Source: Candidatus Saccharimonadota bacterium
GTDB lineage: Bacteria > Patescibacteriota > Saccharimonadia > Saccharimonadales > DTSZ01
Assembly (NCBI GenBank): GCA_012965045.1
Contig: DTSZ01000001.1
Location: 92,937 to 156,936, forward strand
Length of the DNA stretch: 64,000 bases
Direction of reading: 5' to 3'
This document shows positions 1,477-49,479 of the stretch, piece after piece (within the stretch, counting starts at the first letter, position 1; every line of letters begins with the position of its first letter). Made by a program: the position numbers and the translations under genes. The notes beneath the pieces are model-generated. The model made no database searches. It had not been told where the DNA came from and was given only the letters and a program-made list of their open reading frames with translations.

Positions 1477-1559
1477 TAATTTCTGAGTCGATTGTTTACT
1501 ACACCGATGGCAGCGCCAGCCCCAACCCTGGTCCAGGAGGCTTTGCAGTTATTAAAGAT

Positions 1560-8679: not shown

Positions 8680-10179
8680 ATGCAGCATCTTTCTAAGTCA
8701 GATTATTTAAAATTTCGGGTTCATCCAGCTTTCTTGTGGTATCAAAAACATAGTCCGAATGTTTTGCCAAAACCGACCGACAATCAAAAATATACCTTTC
8801 AACAAGGTGACGAATTTGAGCAGTACGCTAAACAACTGTTTGAGGGCGGGGTCGAGGTTGCTGCCGAGCATTATGATTTCAAGGAAGTTTTAAACCAGAC
8901 TAGACAACTACTTTCTGGTGAATGGCGCGTGGTGTTTCAGCCAGGGTTTATGACTGACGACCGCCTGTACTGTAGAAGCGATATCATCGAGAAAACGGAC
9001 ACTGGCTGGATCTTGTATGAAGTAAAGAGTTCCACAAGTGTTAAAACAAGTCACTTGTTTGATTTAGCTTTTCAAAAAAAAGTTCTACAACAACTCGGGC
9101 ATACCGTTACTGCCTGCCGGGTGCTGCATATTAATAAATTTTATAAAAGAAAAAAAGTCATACGACCTGAAAGTTTGGTTGCAATCCGTGACGTAAGCGA
9201 AGAAGTTGCCGAAATAGCCAATAAAGTCGACAAGGAAGTTGCAGAGGCGCAAGCCGTTATCGAGCAGGCGGAGGCCGACGATCACCCGGCTTTTGCTGGA
9301 AATTTGGCCGAATGGATGCCGATATACAATCATATTCATGACGTAGCGGATGATTCAGTTTTAAACCTAACAAGTATTAAACCATCGCAGGTAAAAGAAT
9401 ACTTTTTCGCTGGTATTGAGTCACTGCATGAGCTCGAGCCTAGTTCTGCATTAAATGACAGACAAAAATGGCAAATTAGGGCTACCAAAAATGGCTCGCC
9501 GCTGATTGACGGCGAAAAAGTAAAGACGTTTTTAGATTCTTTGCAGTATCCGTTGTATTTTCTCGATTACGAAACCTCGGCCTACGCAATTCCATTTTAC
9601 GAGGGGGTGAAGCCATATCAACAGATGCCATTTCAGTATTCGCTACATAAACTCGATTCGCCGCAATCACCATTAGAACATTATGAATATCTGCACACCG
9701 AAAAAAACAATCCAGCCCAGCAACTAACGGAGTCATTACTGGGTGATTTGGGTGAAACAGGCACGGTGTTAGCTTGGTTTGATAAGTTCGAAAAATACTG
9801 TAATCGAACGCTTGCAGACTTTGTACCCGAACATAAAGATAGGCTCCATGACATTAATAAACACATGAAAGATTTACGCATACCATTTGCTAACTTCGGA
9901 TATGTAGATGCGCGGTTTGGCGGCAGTACATCGATAAAAAATGTTCTTCCAGTGGTTGTACCTCAGTTAAGTTACAAAAGTCTCGGCATTCAAGAAGGCG
10001 GAGCAGCCCAGCGACTGTGGCAGCAGGTTGTGTTTGATTCTGTTGACGGAGGAGAACAAGTGTTTAACGATCTTATTGAATACTGCAAACTCGATACACT
10101 TGCTATGGTGGAAATTTATAGGGTGTTGCTTGCAGTTGCTGGTTTAGAGTCAGTCAAGACTCAAAGCAGTCTTTTTTAG
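8680..10179 (+). CDS. DUF2779-like protein: N-terminal PD-(D/E)XK nuclease fold plus C-terminal DnaQ-like (DxE) exonuclease-like region
   Basis: The N-terminal half has a D...EVK motif (SDIIEKTDTGWILYEVKSS). The C-terminal half has YFLDYETSAYAIPFY...PFQYSLH, which I recognise from the DUF2779 family. Confidence 0.55.
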   Translation: MQHLSKSDYLKFRVHPAFLWYQKHSPNVLPKPTDNQKYTFQQGDEFEQYAKQLFEGGVEVAAEHYDFKEVLNQTRQLLSGEWRVVFQPGFMTDDRLYCRSDIIEKTDTGWILYEVKSSTSVKTSHLFDLAFQKKVLQQLGHTVTACRVLHINKFYKRKKVIRPESLVAIRDVSEEVAEIANKVDKEVAEAQAVIEQAEADDHPAFAGNLAEWMPIYNHIHDVADDSVLNLTSIKPSQVKEYFFAGIESLHELEPSSALNDRQKWQIRATKNGSPLIDGEKVKTFLDSLQYPLYFLDYETSAYAIPFYEGVKPYQQMPFQYSLHKLDSPQSPLEHYEYLHTEKNNPAQQLTESLLGDLGETGTVLAWFDKFEKYCNRTLADFVPEHKDRLHDINKHMKDLRIPFANFGYVDARFGGSTSIKNVLPVVVPQLSYKSLGIQEGGAAQRLWQQVVFDSVDGGEQVFNDLIEYCKLDTLAMVEIYRVLLAVAGLESVKTQSSLF

Positions 10180-26371: not shown

Positions 26372-28984
26372 TCACCTTAACGTAATCACTTCATTTTCGT
26401 TTAATGATCCATCATTGTTTTGCTGAGCATGTGCTTGTTGAGCTTGTTGTGGTCTGGGCCGTGATTGGTTGGGTTTTGGTTGCGGTTGCCGATTAGTGCG
26501 CTGATTGTTTCTACCCCGCTCTTTTCTATTTTCTCTTCGTACGCGCGTGTTCGCTTTTTGTTTGCTATCACGTTCGAGGGCTTGTTTTTGTATGTACTGC
26601 TCTACGATTTGTCGCGGCGAACCAAATACTTGCCGTGAATTTTCGATTATTACAGGGCTTAAGTCCTGCTCTGTTGGTGGGATATTTAAGGTACTGGCAG
26701 AAAAGGCCTTAGATTTTTCGCCATCTATAGACAATGCAGCTGTAAAGTAACGGTTAGTGGTGTTCACGAGGTCGTTTGCAGTAAAGTAGGGTTCAAAATA
26801 TTTTTCGAGAATACGGCCATCCTCGGCGCCAACCCTAAAGGCTACAATACTACCAACGTTACCAAAAATAGCGTCTCGCACCTCTGGTATCATTTGATTA
26901 ATGTATTGGTTGGCAACGGTTAGTTTTAAGCCGTATTTACGGGCTTCACTTAAGATCACTGAGAACGAATCGGTCGCAAAGTTCTGAAACTCATCCACGT
27001 ATAGGTAGAATGGCCGTCGTTGGTCTTCGGGCATGTCTGCCCTGCTCATAGCGGCTAACTGAATCTTAGTCACCATTAACGCACCGAGTATGGCGGCGTT
27101 GTCTTCACCTACAAGACCACGCGAAAGGTTAACAATTAAGATTCCACCTTGGTCCATAACCTGACGAATATTAAAGCTCGACTGCGGTTGACCAACAATA
27201 TTACGCACCATTGGATTGGCCACAAACGCTCCGACTTTGTTTAGAATTGGTGCCACCGCCTCTGTTTGAAAGCGTGGCTCCCAGCTATTAAATTCGGCAA
27301 CCCAGAAGCTACGAACCACCGGATCTGTAATATGATCGATAACTTCGTCACGAAACCCTTTGTTGGTAAGCATGCGTGTAATGTCTAGCATGGTGGAGTT
27401 AGGGTAATCTAACAGAGCAAGAATGGTGTAGCGCAGAATATATTCTAAGCGTGGACCCCAAGAATCAAACATCCGTTTTAAAACTCCAACTAACTCGGAG
27501 CTAATGTGCCCTTTCAGCTTTGGATCAGTGACTTCCATAGGGTTGAATGCAAGTGGGTGTTCGGTGTCGGCAGGATTGAAATAGACAACCTGCTTGGCCC
27601 GCTCTTGTGGAATGTAGCGCAGCATATTTTGGGCATAGTCTCCATGCGGGTCAACCAATGCAAAGCCTTCGTGGTGATAAATGTCACTAAGGGTGAGCAA
27701 ATTCAATAACCCAGATTTACCAGTGCCGGTTTGACCAATAATGTATAGATGTCGTGCGCGGTCTTTGCGGCGTAGGCCAAATTGCAGGTTGCTGCCCCTA
27801 AAGTTAGTTACACCAAATAGGCTTAGCTCTTCTTCTGAGGCGTTTGTAAGCGTCGGGAGCTGCGAAGGCGGTTCTGCAACGTTCGTCTTTGTCCAAACGA
27901 TATTAGGCGTCTCTACGTTGGTGTGAGGCAAGTGCCAAATACTTGCCAGTTCCTCAGTGTTAAGAGTGAAACCTTTGCCTGCAAAGTAGCGGGCGCGGTA
28001 TTCGCGGACTACACTTGCGTCAAAACTGGACTTTCTTTGCTTGAAGCCATTTAAGTTAGTGCTGTTAAATTGCTTAAACGTGCCAACTAGTGATTGCATG
28101 CGTATTTTGGCGGTGCTTTCGTTATCGCCTAAGTACACTATTCGAATTTTTACCTCATAGCCAAGCTTATTGCTCTTTTCTTCTATAGCCGATATTTGAC
28201 TTCGTTCTCTCTCTGTTAAATCGACTCCGCTACTGGTTGAGCCGGTTGCTTCTGGCGGCTTGAATAAGGCACTAAAGATTTGCAAGAAATAGCCAAGTAC
28301 GCCGGCCCCCACTCCCCTACTCTTTCCACGTTTAATATTAATAATCTCTTTGGCGCCTTTAGTGTGCCATGAATCATTTAGGGGTCGTGCCAGAATCTGC
28401 ACCCATAGTTCTTCGTGTGCACTGTCCAGCTTCGACAAAGTCGCTGTAATAGCAGCTAGTGGATCAACCTCAAAATTTGGGAATGTCCTAATTGGCAGCG
28501 TGTCGCTAGCAATCATGCTAAGTTCGGCAGAGTGAGCCACTGTTTGGTTAAATTCGCGATTTGAGTAGTCATCGACAGCTTCAGATATTTGCACGTCTGG
28601 GTATTGAGCATAGATTTGACCTTCAACAAAACTTTGCAGGTGCTTTGGCGTCCATACGTAGAATTTAATCTGCTGTCCGATTGTCACAATCTCAAAACTT
28701 ATGTGCTCTTGAATTGCTCCTTCACGCAAGATTTCTTTACGGGGACGCAAAATACCATGCAAGCTGGCGAATAGTTGCTCTGCAGACAGTTCGCGTTTTT
28801 CGTTATTGCGAGGAATTTCAAGAATAAGCAACTGGTAATCGGTTTTAAGGGCGAATTTTGTGCGTCGCCAGTTTTGCCACGCTAAATAGCCCAGCACACC
28901 GGCAAGCGGTAACCATATCCATACAGTAGTCACTACAAGTTCAACCAAAGAGAATATAAACTGGACCACCCCGAAATTTGTCAT
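26372..28984 (-). CDS. membrane-anchored P-loop ATPase, VirD4/TraD (type IV coupling protein)-like, FtsK/HerA superfamily
   Basis: 870 aa with two N-terminal TM helices. Walker A is IIGQTGTGKSGLL and Walker B is FYLYVDEFQNF. The C-terminus is a basic Q/R/N-rich tail. Confidence 0.55.
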   Translation of the reverse strand: MTNFGVVQFIFSLVELVVTTVWIWLPLAGVLGYLAWQNWRRTKFALKTDYQLLILEIPRNNEKRELSAEQLFASLHGILRPRKEILREGAIQEHISFEIVTIGQQIKFYVWTPKHLQSFVEGQIYAQYPDVQISEAVDDYSNREFNQTVAHSAELSMIASDTLPIRTFPNFEVDPLAAITATLSKLDSAHEELWVQILARPLNDSWHTKGAKEIINIKRGKSRGVGAGVLGYFLQIFSALFKPPEATGSTSSGVDLTERERSQISAIEEKSNKLGYEVKIRIVYLGDNESTAKIRMQSLVGTFKQFNSTNLNGFKQRKSSFDASVVREYRARYFAGKGFTLNTEELASIWHLPHTNVETPNIVWTKTNVAEPPSQLPTLTNASEEELSLFGVTNFRGSNLQFGLRRKDRARHLYIIGQTGTGKSGLLNLLTLSDIYHHEGFALVDPHGDYAQNMLRYIPQERAKQVVYFNPADTEHPLAFNPMEVTDPKLKGHISSELVGVLKRMFDSWGPRLEYILRYTILALLDYPNSTMLDITRMLTNKGFRDEVIDHITDPVVRSFWVAEFNSWEPRFQTEAVAPILNKVGAFVANPMVRNIVGQPQSSFNIRQVMDQGGILIVNLSRGLVGEDNAAILGALMVTKIQLAAMSRADMPEDQRRPFYLYVDEFQNFATDSFSVILSEARKYGLKLTVANQYINQMIPEVRDAIFGNVGSIVAFRVGAEDGRILEKYFEPYFTANDLVNTTNRYFTAALSIDGEKSKAFSASTLNIPPTEQDLSPVIIENSRQVFGSPRQIVEQYIQKQALERDSKQKANTRVRRENRKERGRNNQRTNRQPQPKPNQSRPRPQQAQQAHAQQNNDGSLNENEVITLR

Positions 28985-33193: not shown

Positions 33194-33658
33194 ATGGATT
33201 ACAACAGCGATTATTTACGCAGATCCTGCACGGATCTTTTTGAAGGCCTTATTTTTGGCGATGAGGTAATGGTGTCTAGTAATAGCAATGCTTTAGTGGA
33301 CGCTGGACTCCCTTTGGCGGAATATACCGGCATAGAAGAAGAATCCTTTGATGAAGACCATTTTCGGTTTGCTATTTTGTGTGCGGCATCAAGCAAATTA
33401 ATTTCAGACTGGTCGTATTTTAGATTTGTTGCGAATAGTCAGGGCTTTTCTGACGACTGGTTACGGTTTTTAAAGCGGCCGGAACATTACTTAGTAGATA
33501 ATACCGATTTAGACGACAAACAGATTCAAGAAATTACAGACTATATTAAAGATACCTTCCGTGAACAGTTCCCCGATCAGCATAATCGGTCGATCGAAGC
33601 TCTAAAGCGCTTTGGTCGTTCAATATCAAGTATTTTTGAGAAAACTAGCGCCGAATAG
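33194..33658 (+). CDS. hypothetical protein
   Basis: 154-aa ORF with no recognised motif. It is divergent from topA and its 3' end overlaps the dprA 3' end by 14 nt. Confidence 0.35.
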   Translation: MDYNSDYLRRSCTDLFEGLIFGDEVMVSSNSNALVDAGLPLAEYTGIEEESFDEDHFRFAILCAASSKLISDWSYFRFVANSQGFSDDWLRFLKRPEHYLVDNTDLDDKQIQEITDYIKDTFREQFPDQHNRSIEALKRFGRSISSIFEKTSAE

Positions 33659-34514
33659 CCCACTGATTGTTACCGAGCGGTCGAATATGACCTTCGATTT
33701 CTAGCATGGTAAGTGCTTGCTGAAAGACAGCGGTTTCTAGGTTAGCCCGTTGCTGTAGTTCATGCGCGTCGTGGCTCACCCCGTCTTTAATTAACTGGTA
33801 TATGACCGTTTGCGTGTCATCTGTGAAAATTGGCAAGCGAATGTCTTCGGTCGGATCGCTATGGTCAAGGTTTAAAACCTCCAGAATATCTATCGCTTTT
33901 GTAACTGGATGTGCGCCAGCCTTAATGAGCTGATTTGTTCCGTAGCTCAGTGGTGCCGTTATCGACCCGGGCACAGCAAATACTTCTTTTCCTTGCTCTA
34001 GAGCATGACGAGCGGTGTTTAATGAGCCGCTCCGTTGGGCGGCTTCCACAACGACCACAGCTCGGCTTAATCCAGAAATAATACGGTTTCGTTCTAGAAA
34101 CTGATGACCTAAATGTGGTGTGCCATTGCTATATTCGCTTACTAAAGCGCCTCCAGAAGTGACTATTGTGATTGCTAACTGGCGATGAGCAGGTGGTGAA
34201 ATAATATCCACACCGCCACCAAGCACCGCTACGGTGTAGCCATTGCTTTCTAGGGCGATTTTGTGCGCCCATGAGTCTATGCCAAAGGCAAGACCACTAA
34301 CAATGCCTACACCGTGACGCACAAGTTCTTTCGTAATAAGTTCTGTTGCTTGTTTACCGTAATTTGTAGCCTTCCTGCTACCAACAACAGCAACTAATGG
34401 CATTTTTGATTTTAAATTGCCGTGTACATACAGTTTGCTAACAGGCTGTGGAATATGTTTGAGGCTGCTCGGAAAGCTTTCTGAGTTGGCTGAAATTGAA
34501 GTTATTGTGCTCAT
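33645..34514 (-). CDS. dprA: DNA-processing protein DprA (Smf)
   Basis: Rossmann-like DprA core with VVGSRKAT, SGLAFGIDSWAHK and VVVEAAQRSGSL, plus a C-terminal winged-helix-like extension. Confidence 0.9.
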   Translation of the reverse strand: MSTITSISANSESFPSSLKHIPQPVSKLYVHGNLKSKMPLVAVVGSRKATNYGKQATELITKELVRHGVGIVSGLAFGIDSWAHKIALESNGYTVAVLGGGVDIISPPAHRQLAITIVTSGGALVSEYSNGTPHLGHQFLERNRIISGLSRAVVVVEAAQRSGSLNTARHALEQGKEVFAVPGSITAPLSYGTNQLIKAGAHPVTKAIDILEVLNLDHSDPTEDIRLPIFTDDTQTVIYQLIKDGVSHDAHELQQRANLETAVFQQALTMLEIEGHIRPLGNNQWAIRR

Positions 34515-38740: not shown

Positions 38741-40291
38741 TTATAGCGCTATATCGTGTGGGTTTACGTCGTCAGATGCAGCTGTTTCCTGCTGCTGATT
38801 TGCGGCCTCTGGTGCTGGTGCTTGTTCACTAGGTGGTGCTTGTGGTTGCGGCTGAGAATCTGCTGGCGCTTGAGCTGCTGTTTCGGTTGGTGTTGCTTCA
38901 GGCACTGGAGGTGTAGCTGGATCTGCTACAGGCTGTGGCGCTGGCGCAGGAGCTGCTGGTGCTGGCTCTGGATGAGCGATATCAGTAGTGTCTGGTTCAA
39001 TTTGTTCAGCTGGCTCTGGGGCAGGCTGTGGTTCTGGGGCTTGGGGAGTTGTTTGCTCTGGCTCTGCTGCGGGCGCAGGTTGAGCTGGCTCTGGGGCAGG
39101 TGTTGTAGGCTCAGTAGGTTGTGGGGCTTCCGTAGCGTCTTGCGCAGCTTGAATAAAGCCTTCAGCAGTGGTTTCTTGGCTGTCTTGTAGTGCCTGTTCG
39201 ACGGCTTGTTCTGCGCTTTCAAGCGCTTCTGGAGCAGCTGTAGCATTATTTTCGGTTTGAGCTGGTTCTTCGGCTGCTCCCTCATTTTGTGAGCTAGAAT
39301 CGGCTGGCTGGTCAAGGTCGGCTGCAGCGTCGCTAATTGTTTCTTGAGGAATATCGACATCGGCAACTGCCAAATTATCGAGTTGGGGGCTTGTTGTTTG
39401 CTCGCTTGCATTAGCAGCTTGTGGTTCCGGTTCAATGCTAGTTGTTGGCGGTTCGCTGTCCTGAACTTGATCGTCGTCCGCAGGAGTTGGCGTGACGATT
39501 ACTGGAGCTGGAGGTACTTGTGTAGTTGGCTCTGGAACACTCGCTACAGGAGCTGGAGCTGGCTCGGGTGCAGGTGGTGGTGCAGGCGCAGGAGGCGTTG
39601 CAGGTTGTGGAGCTGGAGCACTCGTTGGTACAGGTGTAGGCGGTGTAGCAGGTTGCGGAGCCGCTGTTGGCTGAGTTGGAGGCGCTGGAGCAGGTGCAGG
39701 TGGTGGTGTTGCCACTTCTGCAGGAGCTGGTTGTGGGCTGGCTTGTGGTTCTGGTGGTGTGGCAGGTGCTGGAGCTTCAGCGACCGGTGGTGCGGCCGCA
39801 ACTGGGACTTGATCGCTGGTGTCAGAAACTGGTAGATTTGGCAATTCAATATCAGCTTGTGGCTGAGCAACGTCGCTAGCCGATGGTGCAGCTGACTCAT
39901 CGTTGCCTTTATCTGGTGCTGGACCTTGAGATAATAGTTCATTTACGTTACTTACGATGTCTGGAATAGTTACCTGTGATTTAACAAGGTATCTGTCAGC
40001 GCCAAGTCGTTCACCGCGCTCTTTGTCGCTTTGTTGACTTAGGGCTGTCATCATCATGATTCGGGCATTTTTTGCTTCTGGAGTTGAACGGAGAATATCA
40101 AGAACATCGAAGCCGCTGATTTTAGGCATCATGACGTCTAAAATAATTAGTTCTGGCTTTTCTTTTACGGCAACTGCGAGGGCTTCTTCACCATCGGCAG
40201 CAGCAACAACCTCGTGGCCTTCGGCTACGAGTGCGTCGGTATATATTTCTCTTAAATTATTGTCGTCTTCAACGACCATTACTTTTGACAT
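38741..40291 (-). CDS. response regulator receiver domain fused to an approximately 390-aa Pro/Ala/Gln/Glu/Thr-rich low-complexity tail
   Basis: The REC domain covers aa 1-120 (VVEDD, LIILDVMMPKISG, MMTA, YLVKS). The remainder is compositionally biased (PAPAPAPP.., EPQPAPEP..) with no recognisable output domain. Confidence 0.8.
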   Translation of the reverse strand: MSKVMVVEDDNNLREIYTDALVAEGHEVVAAADGEEALAVAVKEKPELIILDVMMPKISGFDVLDILRSTPEAKNARIMMMTALSQQSDKERGERLGADRYLVKSQVTIPDIVSNVNELLSQGPAPDKGNDESAAPSASDVAQPQADIELPNLPVSDTSDQVPVAAAPPVAEAPAPATPPEPQASPQPAPAEVATPPPAPAPAPPTQPTAAPQPATPPTPVPTSAPAPQPATPPAPAPPPAPEPAPAPVASVPEPTTQVPPAPVIVTPTPADDDQVQDSEPPTTSIEPEPQAANASEQTTSPQLDNLAVADVDIPQETISDAAADLDQPADSSSQNEGAAEEPAQTENNATAAPEALESAEQAVEQALQDSQETTAEGFIQAAQDATEAPQPTEPTTPAPEPAQPAPAAEPEQTTPQAPEPQPAPEPAEQIEPDTTDIAHPEPAPAAPAPAPQPVADPATPPVPEATPTETAAQAPADSQPQPQAPPSEQAPAPEAANQQQETAASDDVNPHDIAL

Positions 40292-40334: not shown

Positions 40335-42065
40335 TTATAACCTGCCTTCTAACTCTAGTGGTTTAACCTGTCCTTCTTCTTGCTGTTTTAATTGAGCGGC
40401 TCTGTCGGCATCCAGTCGCGGTAAATTAATGTAGAATGTGCTGCCTTCGCCTAATTTACTTTCGACCCAAATTCTTCCTTTGTACATTTCAACAATATTC
40501 TTAGAAATAAACAAACCTAACCCAGTGCCGCCAATGGCACGCGTGTTAGAGTTGTCGACCCGGTAGAATTTTTGAAACAGGTGCTGAATGTCTTCTTCGG
40601 GTATGCCGTAGCCAGTGTCGCGGACGCTGATTTGAATATAGTCTGGCATGGCTCGTAAACCAACTGTCACGCTGCCGTCCTCGGTAAACTTAACGGCGTT
40701 GTTGATTAGGTTGGTAATAACTTCGCGAATCCGTTCCTCGTCTACATGAATGTACATCAACGGAACAATGGTGTTTTCTCCGTGTGAACCAGACGAGTCG
40801 CCGGCCACCGCGTAGTTAAGTTTTAGGCCTTTCTTTTCAACACTAAAGCGAGCGTCCTCGGTGAGTTGAGTAAGTAGTTGATGAATATCGATAACTTTGG
40901 GGTGGTTTTCTAGTCTGCCATCCTCGCTTTTTGCAGCGGCTAATAAGTCTTTAAATAACTGGCCTAGGTGCTCGGTTGATTCGTGAGCTTTTTCTAGGTA
41001 ATTACGAGCTTTACTGTCGATTTTGGCTACTTTTTCGTTTAAGGCAAGGGCTAGGTAGCCCTCGATAGCTGCAACTGGGGTGCGCATTTCGTGGCTGGCG
41101 GTCGAAATAAACTCTGCTCGCTGTCGCTCAGCTTGGCGGGCCGCACTTACGTCCCTAAAGACTGCAACAACACCTTGTTTTACGTTGGCCGCACTAATTA
41201 ACGACACCGACAGCGACAGTTCCACGGTTTTTTTACTTGCAGTCGTAAGGTTTATCGATTCATACTTTTGGCCACTTGACGAGTCTAAGGCCTTTACAAT
41301 GGGGTGTTCATTGCGCGGTAGTTCGCTAAATTGCCCTTCCCCTGCTGGAGTGACAAATTTCAAGACACTGGTCACGTCTAGCCCCGTGGCGTCTTCTTGT
41401 TTCCAGCCAGTAATGTTGTGTGCAGCTGGGTTAAAAATAACTATTTGCCCAGCGTTATTAACCACAATCACTCCGTCGGCAATCGAGTTAATAACAATTT
41501 CAGACTTTAGTTGCTCGGCCTGCAGTTCGGTGTTGGCATGCTCTATGGTTTTACCGCCTACATGCTCCCAACTAAAGTACGAAATCATGGCCATAAGTAA
41601 ATTAGCAGTTGAATATATGGCCGTTGCTGCGGTTGCGGTGCTGTTTTGCAATAATCCATCTGGAGCTGTCACTAAGTAGACCAAAATTACACCAAGCGTC
41701 ACCAGCAGCGATTTTATGCCAAATGCGCCAGAGAAAAATATAAGCACCGACCATATAAACAGCCATACAGAGGTAATACCACCGCTAATATGGATTAATA
41801 GCAGGCTAGCCATGCCGCTAAGTACCAGTGTTACCAGCGACGAAAGCACAGGTTTTAGCTTTTTGCGCTCTAAAAAATACAACCCAAACGCTTGCACGCA
41901 CACCACAGCAAAACCAGCTACTGCTACATTGGTGAGACCTAATACTTCTGTGGAGTCAACAATCCCAAAAACTTTAAAAACAACAAAACTAAGCGCAATT
42001 AGAAGCGCACCCACCCCTAATGCAAAATTTATTCGGCTATACCAGATGTCAGGAACTTTTTGCAT
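40335..42065 (-). CDS. sensor histidine kinase with polytopic N-terminal membrane domain and PAS domain
   Basis: About 5-6 TM helices, then a PAS-like region (ADGVIVVNNAGQIVIFNPAAHNITGW). H-box STASHEMRTPV, N-box NNAVKFT, and GTGLGLFISK. Confidence 0.85.
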   Translation of the reverse strand: MQKVPDIWYSRINFALGVGALLIALSFVVFKVFGIVDSTEVLGLTNVAVAGFAVVCVQAFGLYFLERKKLKPVLSSLVTLVLSGMASLLLIHISGGITSVWLFIWSVLIFFSGAFGIKSLLVTLGVILVYLVTAPDGLLQNSTATAATAIYSTANLLMAMISYFSWEHVGGKTIEHANTELQAEQLKSEIVINSIADGVIVVNNAGQIVIFNPAAHNITGWKQEDATGLDVTSVLKFVTPAGEGQFSELPRNEHPIVKALDSSSGQKYESINLTTASKKTVELSLSVSLISAANVKQGVVAVFRDVSAARQAERQRAEFISTASHEMRTPVAAIEGYLALALNEKVAKIDSKARNYLEKAHESTEHLGQLFKDLLAAAKSEDGRLENHPKVIDIHQLLTQLTEDARFSVEKKGLKLNYAVAGDSSGSHGENTIVPLMYIHVDEERIREVITNLINNAVKFTEDGSVTVGLRAMPDYIQISVRDTGYGIPEEDIQHLFQKFYRVDNSNTRAIGGTGLGLFISKNIVEMYKGRIWVESKLGEGSTFYINLPRLDADRAAQLKQQEEGQVKPLELEGRL

Positions 42066-42972: not shown

Positions 42973-43047
42973 GGCCCCATCGTCTAACGGTTAGGACACC
43001 AGATTCTCAATCTGGTAATAGGAGTTCGATTCTCCTTGGGGTCACCA
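42973..43047 (+). tRNA. tRNA-Glu (anticodon CUC), CCA encoded
   Basis: Hand-folded cloverleaf: acceptor GGCCCCA/TGGGGTC, D arm GTCT/GGAC, anticodon stem CCAGA/TCTGG with loop TTCTCAA, T arm AGGAG-TTCGATT-CTCCT, and discriminator A followed by CCA. Confidence 0.9.
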
Positions 43048-43052
43048 ACTAA

Positions 43053-43079
43053 AAAACCTGCCATTTGGCGGGTTTTTTA
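43053..43079 (+). terminator. rho-independent terminator after tRNA-Glu
   Basis: AACCTGCC-ATTT-GGCGGGTT hairpin followed by a T6 run. Confidence 0.7.
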
Positions 43080-43102
43080 GTTGAGCGATTCTTCAGGAGA
43101 AG

Positions 43103-43250
43103 CGAACTCCGTATAAGCGGCCATTAGGCTGCGCGGAGTTCAGATAACAACGAGCACGCGCAGAAGCTACCTCCTAGTTTCGAGCATGTGAGGCAGTTAT
43201 ACAAAGTATTCTCCCCTGCCTACCGGCAGGCAGGTTGGGGTCACCAATTT
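43103..43250 (+). repeat. repeat unit A (uninterrupted copy), ending in a 13-nt copy of the tRNA-Glu 3' end
   Basis: It contains GAACTCCG..CGGAGTTCAGATAACAAC, CATGTGAGGCAGTTATACAAAGTATTC, a CCTGCC/GGCAGG hairpin, and then TTGGGGTCACCAA (43235..43247). That last segment is identical to tRNA positions 43036..43048. A second terminator-like hairpin follows. Confidence 0.65.
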
Positions 43251-43655
43251 AAGATCCGCTCGAAAGGGCGGTTTTTAAATTGGTAAGCTTTAATGCGAAA
43301 CGAACTCCGCAAAATGCGTTATTACCTCTTTTATTACTTGAGAAACAGTAATTGTATAAAAAAGGATGCTGGCTGCGAAACAAAGACAAAGTGAAGCAGT
43401 GTGTAGTTTCTTTACTATCCCATAAGTTAGCCAATGATTTTACCGATTTTAGTGTAAGGATACGCAAGTATCTTGTGTGAGAAAATGGCGTTAGAGGTTG
43501 TGAAATCTGGAGAAAAATCGTAAGAAGAGTAGCCCAGTAACAATATCGGTTGAATAGCGAACCGACTTTTAATGCCTTCTGGGTACATTTAGAGACGGCT
43601 AGAGCGATTTTTAGACTATAATCTAAGGTAATATCCTTATGATATTATTTATGAT

Positions 43656-44852
43656 ATGGATGAAAATAAAAACAATGAAAATAAAATAATCCAGTCATTT
43701 GATCCACAGTCGAATACTCAGCAATCCGTTGAAGTTAATCAGTCTACTAATACTCCTCTTTCAAGCCCAGCCTCAAGCAGTCAATTTAACCAGTATCAGA
43801 ATAATAAACCTTCAAAATGGCGTTATTTCTTCGTAGTATTAGGAATATTGCAAGCATTGGGTGTTGCAGTATTTTTCTTAATAATGTTTTGGGCTATACA
43901 GCAAGCTAAGGTAGGAGTTTCAGGTACTGAATATGTTGGCTTAATTCTCTTCGTGACTCTTGTACCTGCCGTTGGAGTAATTGCTTTAATAAATCTAATA
44001 AGCTTACCGATATACATGAGGAAATTCAAACCACGTGGTAAGGGGTTCTTGCTGGCTGTCGTTTCGCTGATCATATCAGTAATATTATTTATGTATGGAG
44101 CATACAGTGTATACCAATTAAGAGTTGCGGCTCCTAGACAGTATGAAGAGTTCAGTGAGCAACTGAAGAAAGATTCGGAACAAAGGGAACAGGAGTTCGC
44201 CGTAGATAATGCAAATCCAGAAATAACTAAAGAAGAAGCAATAACATTAATACAAAGCTGTAAGTTAAAGGGTTTCTACTATACAAAGGAAACCGAAAAA
44301 GAGCATGGGACATCACCTGCTATATCAGCAACTGGTATTGTTCTGACTAAAATAGATGGAGAACCTTACAGAATCAGTATCGCTGATAGTCTAGTAGACG
44401 AACTGGTACCTATTGCTCGAGAAGCTCAAAAAACGTGTGGCGGTCCTCAATTTTGGCATGACGGTAGGTACGAACAGTTCAAAGATGGTAGTTGGTATTT
44501 CAAGGGTGAGGTTGTGAATAGTACGCAATCTGGTAAAACTAAAGAAGAAGCTATTAGTTTCATGCAGGATTGTAAGGCGGACTATTTTGTTGGCTACACT
44601 GATATAGGACTTGTGAAGGACAGTAATACTAAATCGTGGCTGGAGAAAGCCGAACAGTCAAGTAGCGGTATAGAAATATCTGAAGGACCAACGTCTTATG
44701 TATTCGCATCAACGTCAATGACTACAGAACTACAGGATACGGCAAGGCAGTTTCGACAGTCTTGTTACAACACTAAAAAGCTGTATGTAACAATAGATGA
44801 CTGGATAGAGACTGAATATCCAGCGGGCCAATGGACTAGAGTAAAACAATAA
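43656..44852 (+). CDS. hypothetical membrane protein with duplicated C-terminal Cys-containing domain
   Basis: 398 aa with a Q/N/S-rich N-terminus and 4 TM helices. Two related soluble repeats follow (TKEEAITLIQSCKLKGFYYT.. and TKEEAISFMQDCKADYFVGYT..). Confidence 0.5.
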   Translation: MDENKNNENKIIQSFDPQSNTQQSVEVNQSTNTPLSSPASSSQFNQYQNNKPSKWRYFFVVLGILQALGVAVFFLIMFWAIQQAKVGVSGTEYVGLILFVTLVPAVGVIALINLISLPIYMRKFKPRGKGFLLAVVSLIISVILFMYGAYSVYQLRVAAPRQYEEFSEQLKKDSEQREQEFAVDNANPEITKEEAITLIQSCKLKGFYYTKETEKEHGTSPAISATGIVLTKIDGEPYRISIADSLVDELVPIAREAQKTCGGPQFWHDGRYEQFKDGSWYFKGEVVNSTQSGKTKEEAISFMQDCKADYFVGYTDIGLVKDSNTKSWLEKAEQSSSGIEISEGPTSYVFASTSMTTELQDTARQFRQSCYNTKKLYVTIDDWIETEYPAGQWTRVKQ

Positions 44853-45011
44853 AACCCAACCGAAAATACAACAATAGAATAGTCGGTAGTAGTTCTACTC
44901 TAAGCGGAAATGCATCCTGCTACTGTTGTCGCCCTCATATAGTTGTATACCTCAGGTAATTCAGTACAGATTACGTTCGATTTCGACTTCACATAGGTCA
45001 CTATGAAAGCG

Positions 45012-45034
45012 CCCAGCCTTGTGCTGGGTTTTTT
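45012..45034 (+). terminator. rho-independent terminator
   Basis: CCCAGC-CTTGT-GCTGGG hairpin followed by TTTTTT. Confidence 0.6.
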
Positions 45035-45054
45035 CATGATGGATTTCGTTGATG

Positions 45055-45105
45055 AAATCTCGAACTCTAGAGTTCAGATAGCAACAACCACGCACAGAAC
45101 CAAAT
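45055..45105 (+). repeat. repeat unit B, left part
   Basis: GAACTCTAGAGTTCAGATAGCAACAACCACGCACAGAACC aligns with 43122..43166 of unit A. Confidence 0.55.
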
Positions 45106-45197
45106 CCCCGAGTCTATACATTTTTCTGATATTCTTAAACGAATGAATACATCAAGCAATAAAAACAAATCACTTAAACCAGAAAGAACCTTATAAT

Positions 45198-45560
45198 TTG
45201 AAAGCTCATAAACTGTCCAAATGGGGCCTGTTCTTTATTAGCATGAGTGTCTTGCAACTTTTAGGAATTATTTCTTACTATGTTACGGGGTTTTTATTTA
45301 AGCAACAGTTTGGGTCTGACAATTCATCAACCCCGTTTAACACCGACGATTTATTTATCTTGATGTTTGGAACTATTGTCCCGGCTGTGTTTTATATTTC
45401 ACTAATGAATATAGTTGGGCTTCTGATTTATGAAAGTAAACATAAATCAGAAGGTATCCGATCTGTTGCGATTATGCTTTCTTTTATTTTTTCTTTAATT
45501 CTCTGTTTATTGGCATCTCTCTTTTTGCGCGAGACGAGGTTTTTGTTTTTCTTCCCCTAA
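45198..45560 (+). CDS. small membrane protein, truncated paralogue of the TM region of 43656..44852
   Basis: TTG start, 120 aa. It shares SKW..FF..LQ.LG...VPAV...N...L.IY..K.K..G....S.IL with the larger protein and lacks the soluble repeats. Confidence 0.45.
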   Translation: MKAHKLSKWGLFFISMSVLQLLGIISYYVTGFLFKQQFGSDNSSTPFNTDDLFILMFGTIVPAVFYISLMNIVGLLIYESKHKSEGIRSVAIMLSFIFSLILCLLASLFLRETRFLFFFP

Positions 45561-45576
45561 GGACGCACAGTCTTGC

Positions 45577-45683
45577 GAACGATCAACCATGTGAGGCAGT
45601 TCTACAAAGTATTCCCCATCTAGATTTCAGGTATTCAAGCAAGCAGCACGATGCCTGCCTGTCGCCAGGCGGGTCGGGGTCTT
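45577..45683 (+). repeat. repeat unit B, right part, ending in a degenerate tRNA-3'-end echo
   Basis: CATGTGAGGCAGTTCTACAAAGTATTCCCC (45588..) aligns with 43185.. of unit A. It is followed by the hairpin CCTGCCTG/CAGGCGGG and TCGGGGTC (45674..45681). Confidence 0.55.
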
Positions 45684-45701
45684 GTCGACTATGCAAGGGG
45701 T

Positions 45702-48084: not shown

Positions 48085-49263
48085 CTATAGCGCCTTCCAC
48101 TCCTTCAACTCCTCTGGCAAAAAACCCTCTGGGTGCTTAAAGCCGGCTTCCCATTTTGTGCCTTTGCTATAGCCAAGGTCTTTCATGAGCTCTGTCGGAG
48201 CGTTACGAATATGGAGTGGTACTTGGGCGGTTGGATTGTCTTTGGCCGTTTGCAGAGCGTTTTTCATGGCTGTTGTGACATCACGCGACTTGTCGCAGCG
48301 CGCAAGTACTAAGGCGCAGTGGAACAGATTATACTGACACTCTGGCATGCCGATTCGCTCCACCGCCATAAACGTACTGACAGCTACATTAAGCACGCCA
48401 TTTACCGCCAAGCCGACGTCTTCGCTGGCGAATATAACCATTCTGCGGGCAATAAACTTAGGGTCCTCCCCTGCTTGTAGCATTCGCGCTAAATAAAAAC
48501 TGGCGGCATTTTCGTCGCTGCCACGCAATGATTTTATAAATGCGCTAATAGTGTTGTAGTGGTCCTCGCCCTTTTTGTCGTAGCCAGGTAATTTGTTTTG
48601 AGCTGCAGTTTGAATTGTATCGGGCGCTATAACGCCCTTTCCAGCTATTTGTAGGGCTAATTCGAGTGTATTTAGAGCTGTGCGGGCATCGCCGTGGGAG
48701 AGCCGTATTAAAGTAGTGACGCTTTTTGACGGTAGTTGTTTAACTGTTAGTTTAAGCTCTTTTTTTGCTCGTTGGATTATTTGTTTTAAAGATTGTTCTG
48801 ACAGCTGTTTGAGTACAACTACTTTACTGCGGGACAACAAGGCGTTTATTACTTCAAAGCTCGGGTTTTCGGTTGTGGCTCCGATTAAGGTGATAACACC
48901 ACTTTCCACATACGGTAAAAAGGCGTCTTGTTGGGCTTTATTGAATCGATGGATTTCGTCTACAAACAACACAGTACGGTTTTGCAGGCGGTTATTTTGT
49001 TTAGCGCGTTCGATTACCTTCATTACGTCTGCTTTGCCGCTCGCGACAGCACTGAGTTCTATAAAGTCAGCTTTGGTTTCGGTGGCTAAAATTCGTGCGA
49101 GAGTTGTCTTACCGGTACCTGGTGGCCCCCAAAAAATAAGGCTGGTGAGCTTTTTTGTTTTAGCCAATTCAAAAAGCAGCCCACCCTTTTTGGTTAGGTG
49201 TTCTTGCCCAATTACGTCAGCTAATTTTTGTGGACGCAGCTTGTCTGCAAGTGGTTGGATCAT
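48085..49263 (-). CDS. rarA: replication-associated recombination protein A (AAA+ ATPase RarA/MgsA)
   Basis: MIQPLADKLRP.. N-terminus, Walker A GPPGTGKTT, Walker B FVDEIHRFNK, and a MgsA C-terminal helical domain. ATG 49263 was preferred, with TATAAT ending 10 nt upstream. Confidence 0.9.
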   Translation of the reverse strand: MIQPLADKLRPQKLADVIGQEHLTKKGGLLFELAKTKKLTSLIFWGPPGTGKTTLARILATETKADFIELSAVASGKADVMKVIERAKQNNRLQNRTVLFVDEIHRFNKAQQDAFLPYVESGVITLIGATTENPSFEVINALLSRSKVVVLKQLSEQSLKQIIQRAKKELKLTVKQLPSKSVTTLIRLSHGDARTALNTLELALQIAGKGVIAPDTIQTAAQNKLPGYDKKGEDHYNTISAFIKSLRGSDENAASFYLARMLQAGEDPKFIARRMVIFASEDVGLAVNGVLNVAVSTFMAVERIGMPECQYNLFHCALVLARCDKSRDVTTAMKNALQTAKDNPTAQVPLHIRNAPTELMKDLGYSKGTKWEAGFKHPEGFLPEELKEWKAL

Positions 49264-49479
49264 CTTAAGTTTAATTATACTATCTGCTGCTTTCATAGCG
49301 TTGTTAACTTCTCATATAGGTGGGTTTATCGTTAATATTCTAGATGCTTTAATTTAAGAAGGATATTTTGATGAAGCGCGTATTGACACGTTCAACGTAA
49401 CAGTCTTAAGCATCTTTCTAAGTTTTCTCTAAGCTGTCCAGATGCACGAGGGGCGGTGATTGATTTAATAAGTAATAGC

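Follow-up and report, generated by a model that had tools for sequence, protein, structure and literature searches.

Genomic islands inserted at the 3′ end of a tRNA-like gene are known from Dehalococcoides, where islands at ssrA are stacked in tandem and bounded by 20-bp direct repeats that run from a mid-T-loop position to the 3′ end of the gene (McMurdie et al. 2011, PMC3146451). These islands are kilobases long, their crossover in the T-loop is made by a serine recombinase, and most have a CcrB-like serine recombinase module beside attL; some members are without integration genes and were considered possible cis-mobilizable elements by the authors, who cite the concept of such elements (CIMEs) (PMC3146451). 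Here we analyze a locus at 43.05–45.68 kb of a 64,000-nucleotide stretch of DNA (hereafter the window) from an uncultured Saccharimonadales bacterium (Candidatus Saccharibacteria, Candidate Phyla Radiation, CPR) of hydrothermal-vent origin. Three small cassettes stand there one after another, behind the 3′ end of a tRNA-Glu(CUC) gene. Saccharibacteria and other CPR bacteria have tiny genomes, for which few mobile elements have been described to our knowledge, and the gain of accessory genes in them is, as far as we know, poorly understood; literature searches for integrons or islands of Saccharibacteria turned up nothing relevant. CIMEs have attL/attR-type flanks and no integrase or transfer genes, and accrete in tandem with their relatives; the described examples arose from integrative elements by deletion, measure several kilobases and are not known to have a conserved secondary structure. 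Integron arrays and clusters of attC sites lacking integron integrases (CALINs) are built of very short cassettes with imperfect palindromes, and such arrays can exist without an integrase nearby. In plant mitochondrial t-elements, mascRNA and transfer-messenger RNA (tmRNA), a mimic of the acceptor and T-arm can be processed by RNase P or RNase Z.

The tRNA-Glu(CUC) gene is the only tRNA gene in the window according to both ARAGORN and Rfam. Its last 13 nucleotides, TTGGGGTCACCAA (43036–43048), are repeated exactly at 43235–43247, and no other site in the window matches them with two or fewer mismatches. By chance, 6e-6 exact copies of a 13-mer would be expected within 400 nt. The full downstream copy of the tRNA tail (hereafter the echo) comprises 20 nt, ATTCTCC (tRNA position 58 onward) and TTGGGGTCACCA, which are split by a 20-nt hairpin. 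Every cassette follows one order: a terminator directly after the CCA of the tRNA or echo, hairpins derived from the T-arm, an optional cargo, a 3′ module and a tRNA-tail echo. Unit A has no cargo, cassette 2 carries a truncated helix-turn-helix (HTH) gene together with the open reading frame (ORF) ORF398, and unit B carries ORF120, a paralogue of the ORF398 membrane domain (E 4e-16). The stems of terminators T1 and T2 extend to pair with the CCAA of the tRNA and of the echo, respectively, so that the extended T1 stem reaches into the CCA end of the tRNA. Both terminators are followed by inverted copies of the T-arm, at 43095–43110 (94% complementary) and 43292–43308 (82%). Two blocks of unit A recur in unit B, 43136–43165 at 45070–45099 (87% identity) and 43180–43214 at 45583–45617 (89%), and neither block pattern had a match in 100 shuffled sequences. 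Several module boundaries in cassette 2 were set by eye; where its degenerate echo GGTCACTA stands, the relative L145 (other loci and contigs are designated here by L numbers) has GTTCACCA and a terminator.

Part of this layout had been noticed in an original prediction made from the letters of the sequence; the ATTCTCC start of the echo, the inverted T-arm copies, the third echo with its terminator and the relation of ORF120 to ORF398 are added here. The tRNA gene, the 13-nt repeat, a hairpin with a T-run after each copy and the homology of unit A to two later blocks were all recovered by independent programs, and the block homology withstood the shuffled-sequence control. Likewise, the predicted partial copy of the 5′ end of unit A is present at 43290–43314 as a direct and an inverted repeat, the small gene between the two later blocks lies in an interval of ~480 nt, and the degenerate echo TCGGGGTC is preceded by a similar hairpin. 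ARAGORN, which had been suggested as a check, reported a single tRNA, no pseudo-tRNA and no tmRNA.

The same arrangement was found behind other tRNA genes. A kinase-anchored search of a genome collection revealed L011, a Saccharibacterium with a kinase 53% identical, where 192 nt after tRNA-Glu(CUC) there is a 20–21-nt exact copy of that gene's own, different, 3′ end, with its own terminator and inverted T-arm copies. No echo was found in L006, L009 and L010, compared by kinase synteny among species-representative genomes (relatives 44–54% identical). A metagenome scan for the tRNA-Glu T-arm and acceptor yielded 120 loci, on unannotated contigs of uncertain taxonomy. An exact echo of the gene's own tail, at least 12 nt long and 120–199 nt downstream, was detected for 11 of 124 tRNA-Glu genes (CUC and UUC) and for 1 of 171 other tRNAs on the same contigs (Fisher p 4e-4; ~0.003 expected by chance). 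The module family is thus far undescribed, and it stands behind about one in ten of the tRNA-Glu genes sampled in related bacteria.

The modules are 94–199 nt in size, lie behind tRNA-Glu genes of Saccharimonadia and share a common plan. The 5′ part consists of CACCA, a terminator, TTGGTG (complementary to CACCAA) and a hairpin, h1. It is followed by h2, in which TCGAACyC, a short loop and GrGTTC(G/A)A represent an inverted and then a direct copy of the 5′ half of the T-arm. The 3′ part has at least one further hairpin and then ATTCyCC, the 3′ strand of the acceptor and CCA. A block of GCGCAGAA, a hairpin and CGAGCA is frequent among modules and is also present in window units A and B. Exact echoes are 13–22 nt long and most begin at A58 ± 1; in each case the echo is the tail of the local tRNA, and the mature CCA terminus is the exact end of the duplication in each of the 11 first-position modules. 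In the module locus L112 the first ~95 nt are of high G+C content and the 5′ acceptor strand of the tRNA does not pair with the 3′ strand; L112:1–95 is probably part of a chimeric metagenome contig, joined inside the conserved D-arm of tRNA-Glu.

Comparison of syntenic loci revealed that the modules behave as discrete units. In L057, L075, L032, L096 and L120, tRNA-Glu(UUC) is followed by pgk. L057 has a module; in L075 and L032 the site is empty and the CCA of the tRNA is joined directly to the flank that follows the echo in L057. The 163-bp L057 module is therefore a discrete indel bounded by a 19-nt duplication. The tRNA of the empty sites has no terminator of its own, and the module brings the sole one, which fits a terminator supplied by the element. 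For the module family, then, the locus is not invariant in all relatives, which differ by presence or absence of the module; the window's own relatives are either identical at this place (L166–L168) or too distant for a site comparison. Mosaicism was also observed between L069 and L086, whose identity of 99% upstream falls to 96.5% across the module and, past a breakpoint at the echo, to 75% in the cassette that comes next. Homologous modules occur at non-syntenic places as well, the L112 module being 87% identical to the second L125 module (L125b) and the first (L125a) matching L040, and the block GTTCAGATAA...GCGCAGAA is common to units A and B of the window, L112 and L125b.

Arrays and cargo are not restricted to the window. 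In L066 the tRNA is followed by a module, a gene on the minus strand and a second module, whose echo is of foreign type; after it come a Fic gene and then an echo with a terminator. Two modules precede a ParE toxin gene in L125, and two modules are present in L133. In L011 the module is followed by a heliorhodopsin gene (L011:2980–3744, minus strand; Pfam E 2e-100), which lies in a variable segment between the tRNA-Glu module and the conserved kinase.

Alignment of modules revealed a conserved fold. RNAalifold applied to seven modules from other loci predicted 33 base pairs, 12 of them with compensatory changes, and none of 500 shuffles reached the observed values in a counting test. Paired cells amounted to 92%, compared to 31–51% when the partners were slid (35–47% in the seven-module test). 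The seven foreign modules were used to build a covariance model, R1, with unit A excluded from the seed. R1 matched unit A at 43065–43246 (23.9 bits; E 0.0064 for the complete search, 0.0016 for a smaller one), had no other match in the window, and recovered non-seed modules in L125, L112, L133 (two copies), L070, L050, L128 and L011. All matches were on the tRNA strand, directly behind tRNA-Glu genes. In a 16-member alignment, which was fitted to R1 and hence leans towards it, 25 of the 33 pairs had compensatory changes; the covariation as a whole is drawn from 7–16 related sequences. Between L057 and L086, substitutions affected 1 of 66 paired and 9 of 64 unpaired columns (p 0.008), and the module was 91% identical compared to 69–73% for the coding flanks. 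Unit A is thus a member of a conserved structured module family with compensatory base-pair changes, and it is not decaying debris, since it is better conserved than the flanking protein genes. The original reading of the locus as cassette-like, variable and made by serial insertion at a tRNA gene without an integrase is supported in its main part, and is strengthened by the echo-bounded cassettes, the indels at related loci, the accessory cargo of other arrays and the lack of a recombinase in the ORFs scanned; the word "scars" undersells a family with a conserved structure.

Predicted folding was strong, with z-scores of −4.8 to −6.8 for unit A and −6.1 for the L011 module. According to the predicted folds, the partner of CACCA is the TTGGTG upstream of it and the echo is paired within itself; conserved unpaired motifs, GCGCAGAA ... 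CGAGCA, flank a covarying hairpin. Minimum free energy (MFE) folds slightly favoured the tRNA strand (G-U pairs 62 vs 38; total −745 vs −712 kcal/mol). In the conserved helices 88% of pairs were Watson-Crick, and G-U was not clearly commoner than A-C (12 vs 7). The h3 region alone, aligned by MAFFT, gave zero pairs with RNAalifold, the alignment being too poor. A search of the window and 16 loci against Rfam 15 at the gathering threshold returned tRNA only, and relaxing it to E up to 10 added only sub-threshold matches, which overlap the tRNA and the terminators. For the GCGCAGAA...CGAGCA loop and for TTGGTG, a kink-turn, a hairpin ribozyme and a T-box were considered and did not fit.

Some further observations concern individual modules and tRNA genes. 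The sole non-Glu case, tRNA-Leu(CAG) at L073:6504–6590 (minus strand), is the last in a seven-tRNA cluster of a different organism. Within ~170 nt downstream of it there are a terminator, an inverted T-arm piece, hairpins and a 28-nt copy of T-arm, acceptor and CCA, so that the phenomenon extends, at least in this case, beyond both tRNA-Glu and Saccharibacteria. In L043 (tRNA 1482–1556, minus strand) and L056 (1588–1662, minus strand), tRNA-Glu(UUC) is followed after 91–93 nt by a partial tRNA-Glu copy of ~54 nt, from the anticodon stem to CCA. In T-stem and acceptor this copy is unlike the intact gene, which marks the 3′ part, whether displaced or imported, as foreign. The duplicated segment of the window's tRNA-Glu (43029–43047 and all echoes) is self-complementary, with ATTCC and GGGAT around CCUU, and forms its own hairpin, helix 9, in the consensus structure; this self-folding may be the reason why tRNA-Glu is the preferred target. 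At L086:1903–1955 (plus strand) there is a type III hammerhead-like motif with an intact CUGAUGA...GAAA core, which matches the full length of the Rfam Hammerhead_3 model (23.5 bits, E 0.023, below the gathering score). The motif closes a small cargo cassette on its right side, at the place where one would look for a tRNA echo.

Table 1. Features of the tRNA-Glu(CUC) cassette array and its surroundings in the window
Feature	Position	Strand	Basis and details
tRNA-Glu(CUC), CCA encoded	42973–43047	+	ARAGORN; Rfam tRNA 64.6 bits; array anchor and source of every echo
Terminator T1	43046–43083	+	GC hairpin between A and T runs; 18-nt inverted repeat, 94% complementary
Unit A, empty cassette	43084–43247	+	Repeats, folding, covariance model R1
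Unit A, inverted T-arm copy	43095–43110	+	
Unit A, stem GCGAACTCCG/CGGAGTTCAG		+	Encloses a small hairpin
Unit A, conserved block 1	43136–43165	+	Followed by apical hairpin
Unit A, conserved block 2	43180–43214	+	
Unit A, echo	43208–43214, 43215–43234, 43235–43247	+	ATTCTCC, hairpin and TTGGGGTCACCA(A), respectively
Terminator T2	43243–43284	+	Inverted repeat; terminator scan match 43256–43271; extended stem pairs with echo CCAA
Cassette 2 start, truncated 5′ module	43280–43311	+	TTGGT and inverted T-arm piece CGAACTCC (43301–43308)
Small HTH gene remnant	43327–43423	+	C-terminal part only; BLASTN match to L145/L146 from 43327; frame by eye
ORF398, cassette 2 cargo	43656–44852	+	N-terminal membrane domain and repeated C-terminal domain
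Cassette 2, 3′ end	44943–45003	+	GTTGTATACCTCAGGTAATTC, like the L125b/L112 3′ module (by eye)
Degenerate third echo GGTCACTA	44996–45003	+	Directly before terminator T3
Terminator T3, cassette 3 start	45004–45036	+	Terminator scan match 45011–45029
Unit B, 5′ module	45037–45099	+	TGATGG, h1, h2, conserved block; layout identical to foreign modules
Unit B, hairpin h1	45042–45047 / 45054–45059	+	GATTTC / GAAATC
Unit B, palindrome h2	45060–45077	+	TCGAACTC-TA-GAGTTCAG
Unit B, conserved block	45070–45099	+	Direct repeat
ORF120, cargo inside unit B	45198–45560	+	Public gene callers: 105 aa from 45243
Unit B, 3′ module	45583–45681	+	Block 45583–45617, hairpin 45654–45673, truncated echo without CCA
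Truncated echo TCGGGGTC	45674–45681	+	Preceded by hairpin resembling 43215–43234
Histidine kinase / response regulator pair	40335–42065 / 38741–40291	−	On one side of tRNA-Glu
rarA	48085–49296		~5 kb beyond tRNA-Glu, on the other side
VirD4/TraG-like coupling ATPase	26372–28984	−	
DprA	33645–34514	−	
Cas4-like/DUF2779 nuclease	8680–10179	+	

The ORF398 family is widespread in Saccharimonadales, and its genomic neighbourhood differs from genome to genome; source labels of the homologues are Saccharimonadales or Saccharibacteria. The C-terminal domain of ~100 aa is repeated, and the DNA contains an internal repeat (44225–44264 / 44537–44576). Homologues are often preceded by the small HTH gene, which is intact in L145, L146 and L005. 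A tRNA-Glu-type echo, GTAGAGATCACCAA, stands ahead of the ORF398 cassette in L145 and L146 (87% identical). Relatives at 87–89% identity are short contigs, and the tRNA-Glu neighbourhood of the window was shared by none of the homologue contexts compared. In other genomes a homologue was found behind tRNA-Pro (L001) and near tRNA-Arg and a 520-aa serine recombinase (L003). A search for ORF120 homologues returned the protein itself, on three 100% identical contigs, and no other match.

These contigs, L166–L168, come from Lau Basin vent metagenomes and contain DNA identical to the locus; the longest is 929,678 bp. Position 1 of L168 corresponds to window position 45098, the exact end of the unit B 5′ block at the boundary between module and ORF120 cargo, and could be an assembly break due to strain heterogeneity at this junction. 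Outside the array, Pfam analysis of 28 window ORFs also detected a KAP NTPase adjoining the array and RmuC. The response regulator next to the histidine kinase has a receiver domain followed by ~400 low-complexity residues rich in Pro, Ala and Glu. The VirD4/TraG-like ATPase, DprA and the Cas4-like nuclease are connected with DNA uptake and processing and could bear on the entry of cassettes.

Explanations were weighed against the observed anatomy, recurrence, indel behaviour and conserved fold of the cassettes and the observed lack of a local recombinase. We tentatively favour the view that these are integrase-less, cis-mobilizable mini-cassettes, which may well have been inserted by site-specific recombination at a mid-T-loop position by an enzyme acting in trans. 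Such trans-mobilised insertion was ranked most likely because its geometry has a precedent in the Dehalococcoides ssrA islands. The T-loop region of the tRNA gene would serve as attB and undergo conservative site-specific recombination with a corresponding site on a newly arriving cassette. This cassette would bring a new tRNA 3′ end and a terminator, and the old 3′ end would be pushed downstream. Repeated events would stack the cassettes, the newest adjoining the tRNA, and with the recombinase encoded elsewhere the cassettes would be cis-mobilizable. How the recombination proceeds, the enzyme acting in trans and the succession of events are inferred here. In support of this model, the echo geometry (13–22 nt, mostly from A58 ± 1) matches the mid-T-loop repeats of the ssrA islands, and the cargo is of accessory type, with Fic and ParE at other loci and the KAP NTPase beside the window array. 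The recurrence behind tRNA-Glu genes, the empty sites, the mosaicism of L069 and L086, the homologous modules at non-syntenic places, the ORF398 cassette behind another tRNA-Glu-type echo and the restriction of R1 matches to tRNA-Glu genes speak for it as well.

A number of results count against trans-mobilised insertion. Neither a tyrosine or serine recombinase nor a transposase was detected among the 28 window ORFs, and no recombinase was found in 10 ORFs beside modules of other loci or in 22 further downstream ORFs, mostly coding for glycolytic enzymes. At the scanned loci there was no Phage_integrase match and no integron integrase, HUH transposase or reverse transcriptase. Scans of viral contigs with three module motifs gave chance matches inside ORFs, and a scan for the tRNA tail gave phage tRNA clusters and no attP-bearing or helper element. 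The window's own population is invariant, L166–L168 being 100% identical to it. Modules of 94–199 bp are shorter than the double-stranded DNA circles that recombinases are known to handle, and a multi-hairpin fold that is conserved is not expected of plain att arms; the very small size and the conserved fold are not explained by the recombination model. It likewise leaves the inverted T-arm pieces, which follow the local T-stem in sequence (p 0.014), without an explanation. By eye, the stretch immediately left of the echo fails to mirror it, unlike in a dyad-symmetric att site. Finally, distal echoes are cleanly truncated at the 3′ end in window unit B, L125b, L133b and L026, and extra events are therefore needed under this model.

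A first rival view is that the module is a functional structured non-coding RNA. It would be transcribed together with tRNA-Glu by read-through, or else from a promoter of its own; selection would act on its fold, and the echo and inverted T-arm would act at the RNA level, for example in an interplay with tRNA-Glu or a processing enzyme or in 3′-end definition. The strong predicted folding, the covariation in both alignments together with the avoidance of paired columns by substitutions, conservation above that of neighbouring genes, the conserved unpaired motifs around a covarying hairpin and the slight MFE preference for the tRNA strand all fit this view. We nevertheless consider it rather unlikely: a terminator lies immediately upstream and leaves too little space for a promoter, the largely Watson-Crick helices show no clear preference for G-U over A-C, and Rfam has no match even at E up to 10. 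Moreover, the module is present or absent among close relatives, a 480-nt gene interrupts unit B, and h2, often perfectly palindromic with 2 nt between its arms, would make an awkward RNA loop. The echo has no 5′ acceptor-strand partner and hence is no tRNA mimic, and neither ARAGORN nor Rfam reported a tRNA-like or tmRNA-like gene; on these grounds, with the promoter and G-U arguments just given, the alternative of the original prediction that the repeats are tRNA-3′-like ends of small transcripts is not supported in that form. The weak strand preference and nearly exclusive Watson-Crick pairing would suit folded single-stranded DNA instead. Here junctions (echo, terminator, TTGGTG and hairpins) would be recombination sites comparable to integron attC sites or to the subterminal hairpins of HUH/Y1 transposons, with the T-arm as the primary site. 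At each junction the terminator loop forms the centre of a long imperfect palindrome (tRNA 3′ half/terminator/TTGGTG...TCGAAC; 52 nt in one case), structure is kept while sequence varies without strand bias, cassettes of 100–200 nt are unproblematic for single-strand mechanisms, and the arrays are made of short cassettes with zero or one gene. This is nonetheless unlikely, given that no integron integrase or HUH transposase was found at any scanned locus, that h2 (TCGAACyC / GrGTTCGA) by eye does not fit attC R boxes (RYYYAAC / GTTRRRY), and that the cargo genes, in contrast to integron cassettes, come with terminators and apparent promoters of their own. Equally doubtful is the broader proposal that Saccharimonadia possess a tRNA-anchored, integron-like cassette system, with the stretch from T-arm to CCA of tRNA-Glu as the primary attachment site and the structured junction as the site borne by the cassette. 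A trans-acting recombinase may then read the folded junction, and empty cassettes of ~100–200 nt may be the basic mobile unit, with genes riding inside or between them.

Two explanations dispense with site-specific recombination altogether. Template switching during replication at palindromes (tandem inversion duplication) would leave snap-back copies, later remodelled and without function. Two snap-backs are expected to give the observed order of tRNA 3′ part, inverted T-arm and direct copy; junctions are perfect palindromes with 2–3-nt spacers, and the copies match the local tRNA, h2 reading AACTC only where the T-stem is GGAG (3 of 4 cases vs 0 of 9 otherwise, p 0.014). What makes this origin improbable is that loci and tRNA-Glu isoacceptors share sequence that is not tRNA (h1 and the GCGCAGAA block), so the modules are homologous and were not generated independently; structural constraint, conservation above the coding flanks and confinement almost only to tRNA-Glu also contradict it. 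In non-autonomous retro-inserted elements, the tail of a module RNA would anneal to the tRNA gene, and target-primed reverse transcription would copy this RNA, the 19-nt echo being the target-site duplication. The duplication ends at the mature CCA in the 11 first-position modules and mostly starts at A58/T59, where reverse transcriptase classically stops and so sets the 18-nt retroviral primer-binding site. In every case the echo agrees with the local tRNA, and the hammerhead-like motif closes a neighbouring cassette in L086. Mid-T-loop site-specific recombination yields the same boundaries (PMC3146451), no reverse transcriptase was found at scanned loci and such an element has no known bacterial precedent, which leaves retro-insertion the least likely of these explanations. 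Other origins were rejected: chance by the expectations given above (6e-6 and 0.003), a decayed tandem tRNA gene by the non-tRNA sequence that modules share across loci, and the remnant of a large island by neighbours that are mostly glycolytic housekeeping genes. A miniature inverted-repeat transposable element or other element derived from an insertion sequence did not fit either, as terminal inverted repeats were not seen by eye, the duplication is ~19 nt and no R1 copy is present elsewhere in the window.

Together, the window and ~17 related loci point to one recurrent hot spot, the 3′ end of tRNA-Glu, where small, structured, integrase-less cassettes are gained, lost and exchanged with cargo such as membrane proteins and toxin genes. 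If ordinary site-specific recombination in trans is responsible, these would be the smallest cis-mobilizable elements described and would provide a handle on the recombinase. Should recombination act on the fold as such, or should the fold be that of an RNA product, the modules would represent a novel type of recombination site or a tRNA-linked RNA family that is likewise new. Under either reading, R1 is a concrete marker with which gene flux in CPR genomes can be mapped.

Compared with known systems, the locus combines features of several. As in tRNA-targeted integrative elements, an intact tRNA gene stands at one boundary and a repeat of its tail at the other; the internal recombinase gene of such elements was not found among the ORFs scanned. 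Like CIMEs, the cassettes are flanked by att-type repeats, carry no recombination genes and lie in tandem; no helper element turned up in the viral contig scans. Integrons and CALINs also have short cassettes with zero or one gene and junctions whose structure is kept more than their sequence. They differ in that the junctions described here, TCGAACyC ... GrGTTCGA, share only the AAC/GTT cores with attC R boxes, the anchor is a tRNA and not attI, the cargo has its own signals and no IntI homologue was seen. With tRNA-like 3′ elements the cassettes share a tRNA-derived 3′ segment ending in CCA that closes non-tRNA sequence, but they lack the 5′ strand of the acceptor, and a tRNA-like fold is recognised by neither ARAGORN nor Rfam. 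The Dehalococcoides ssrA islands are alike in their insertion at the 3′ end of a tRNA-like gene, tandem stacking, bounding repeats and integrase-less members. In contrast to them, no recombinase was found here and the target is tRNA-Glu in Saccharimonadia instead of ssrA, while the commonest unit is a non-coding module of 94–199 nt whose fold is conserved and which contains inverted T-arm copies and a terminator of its own.

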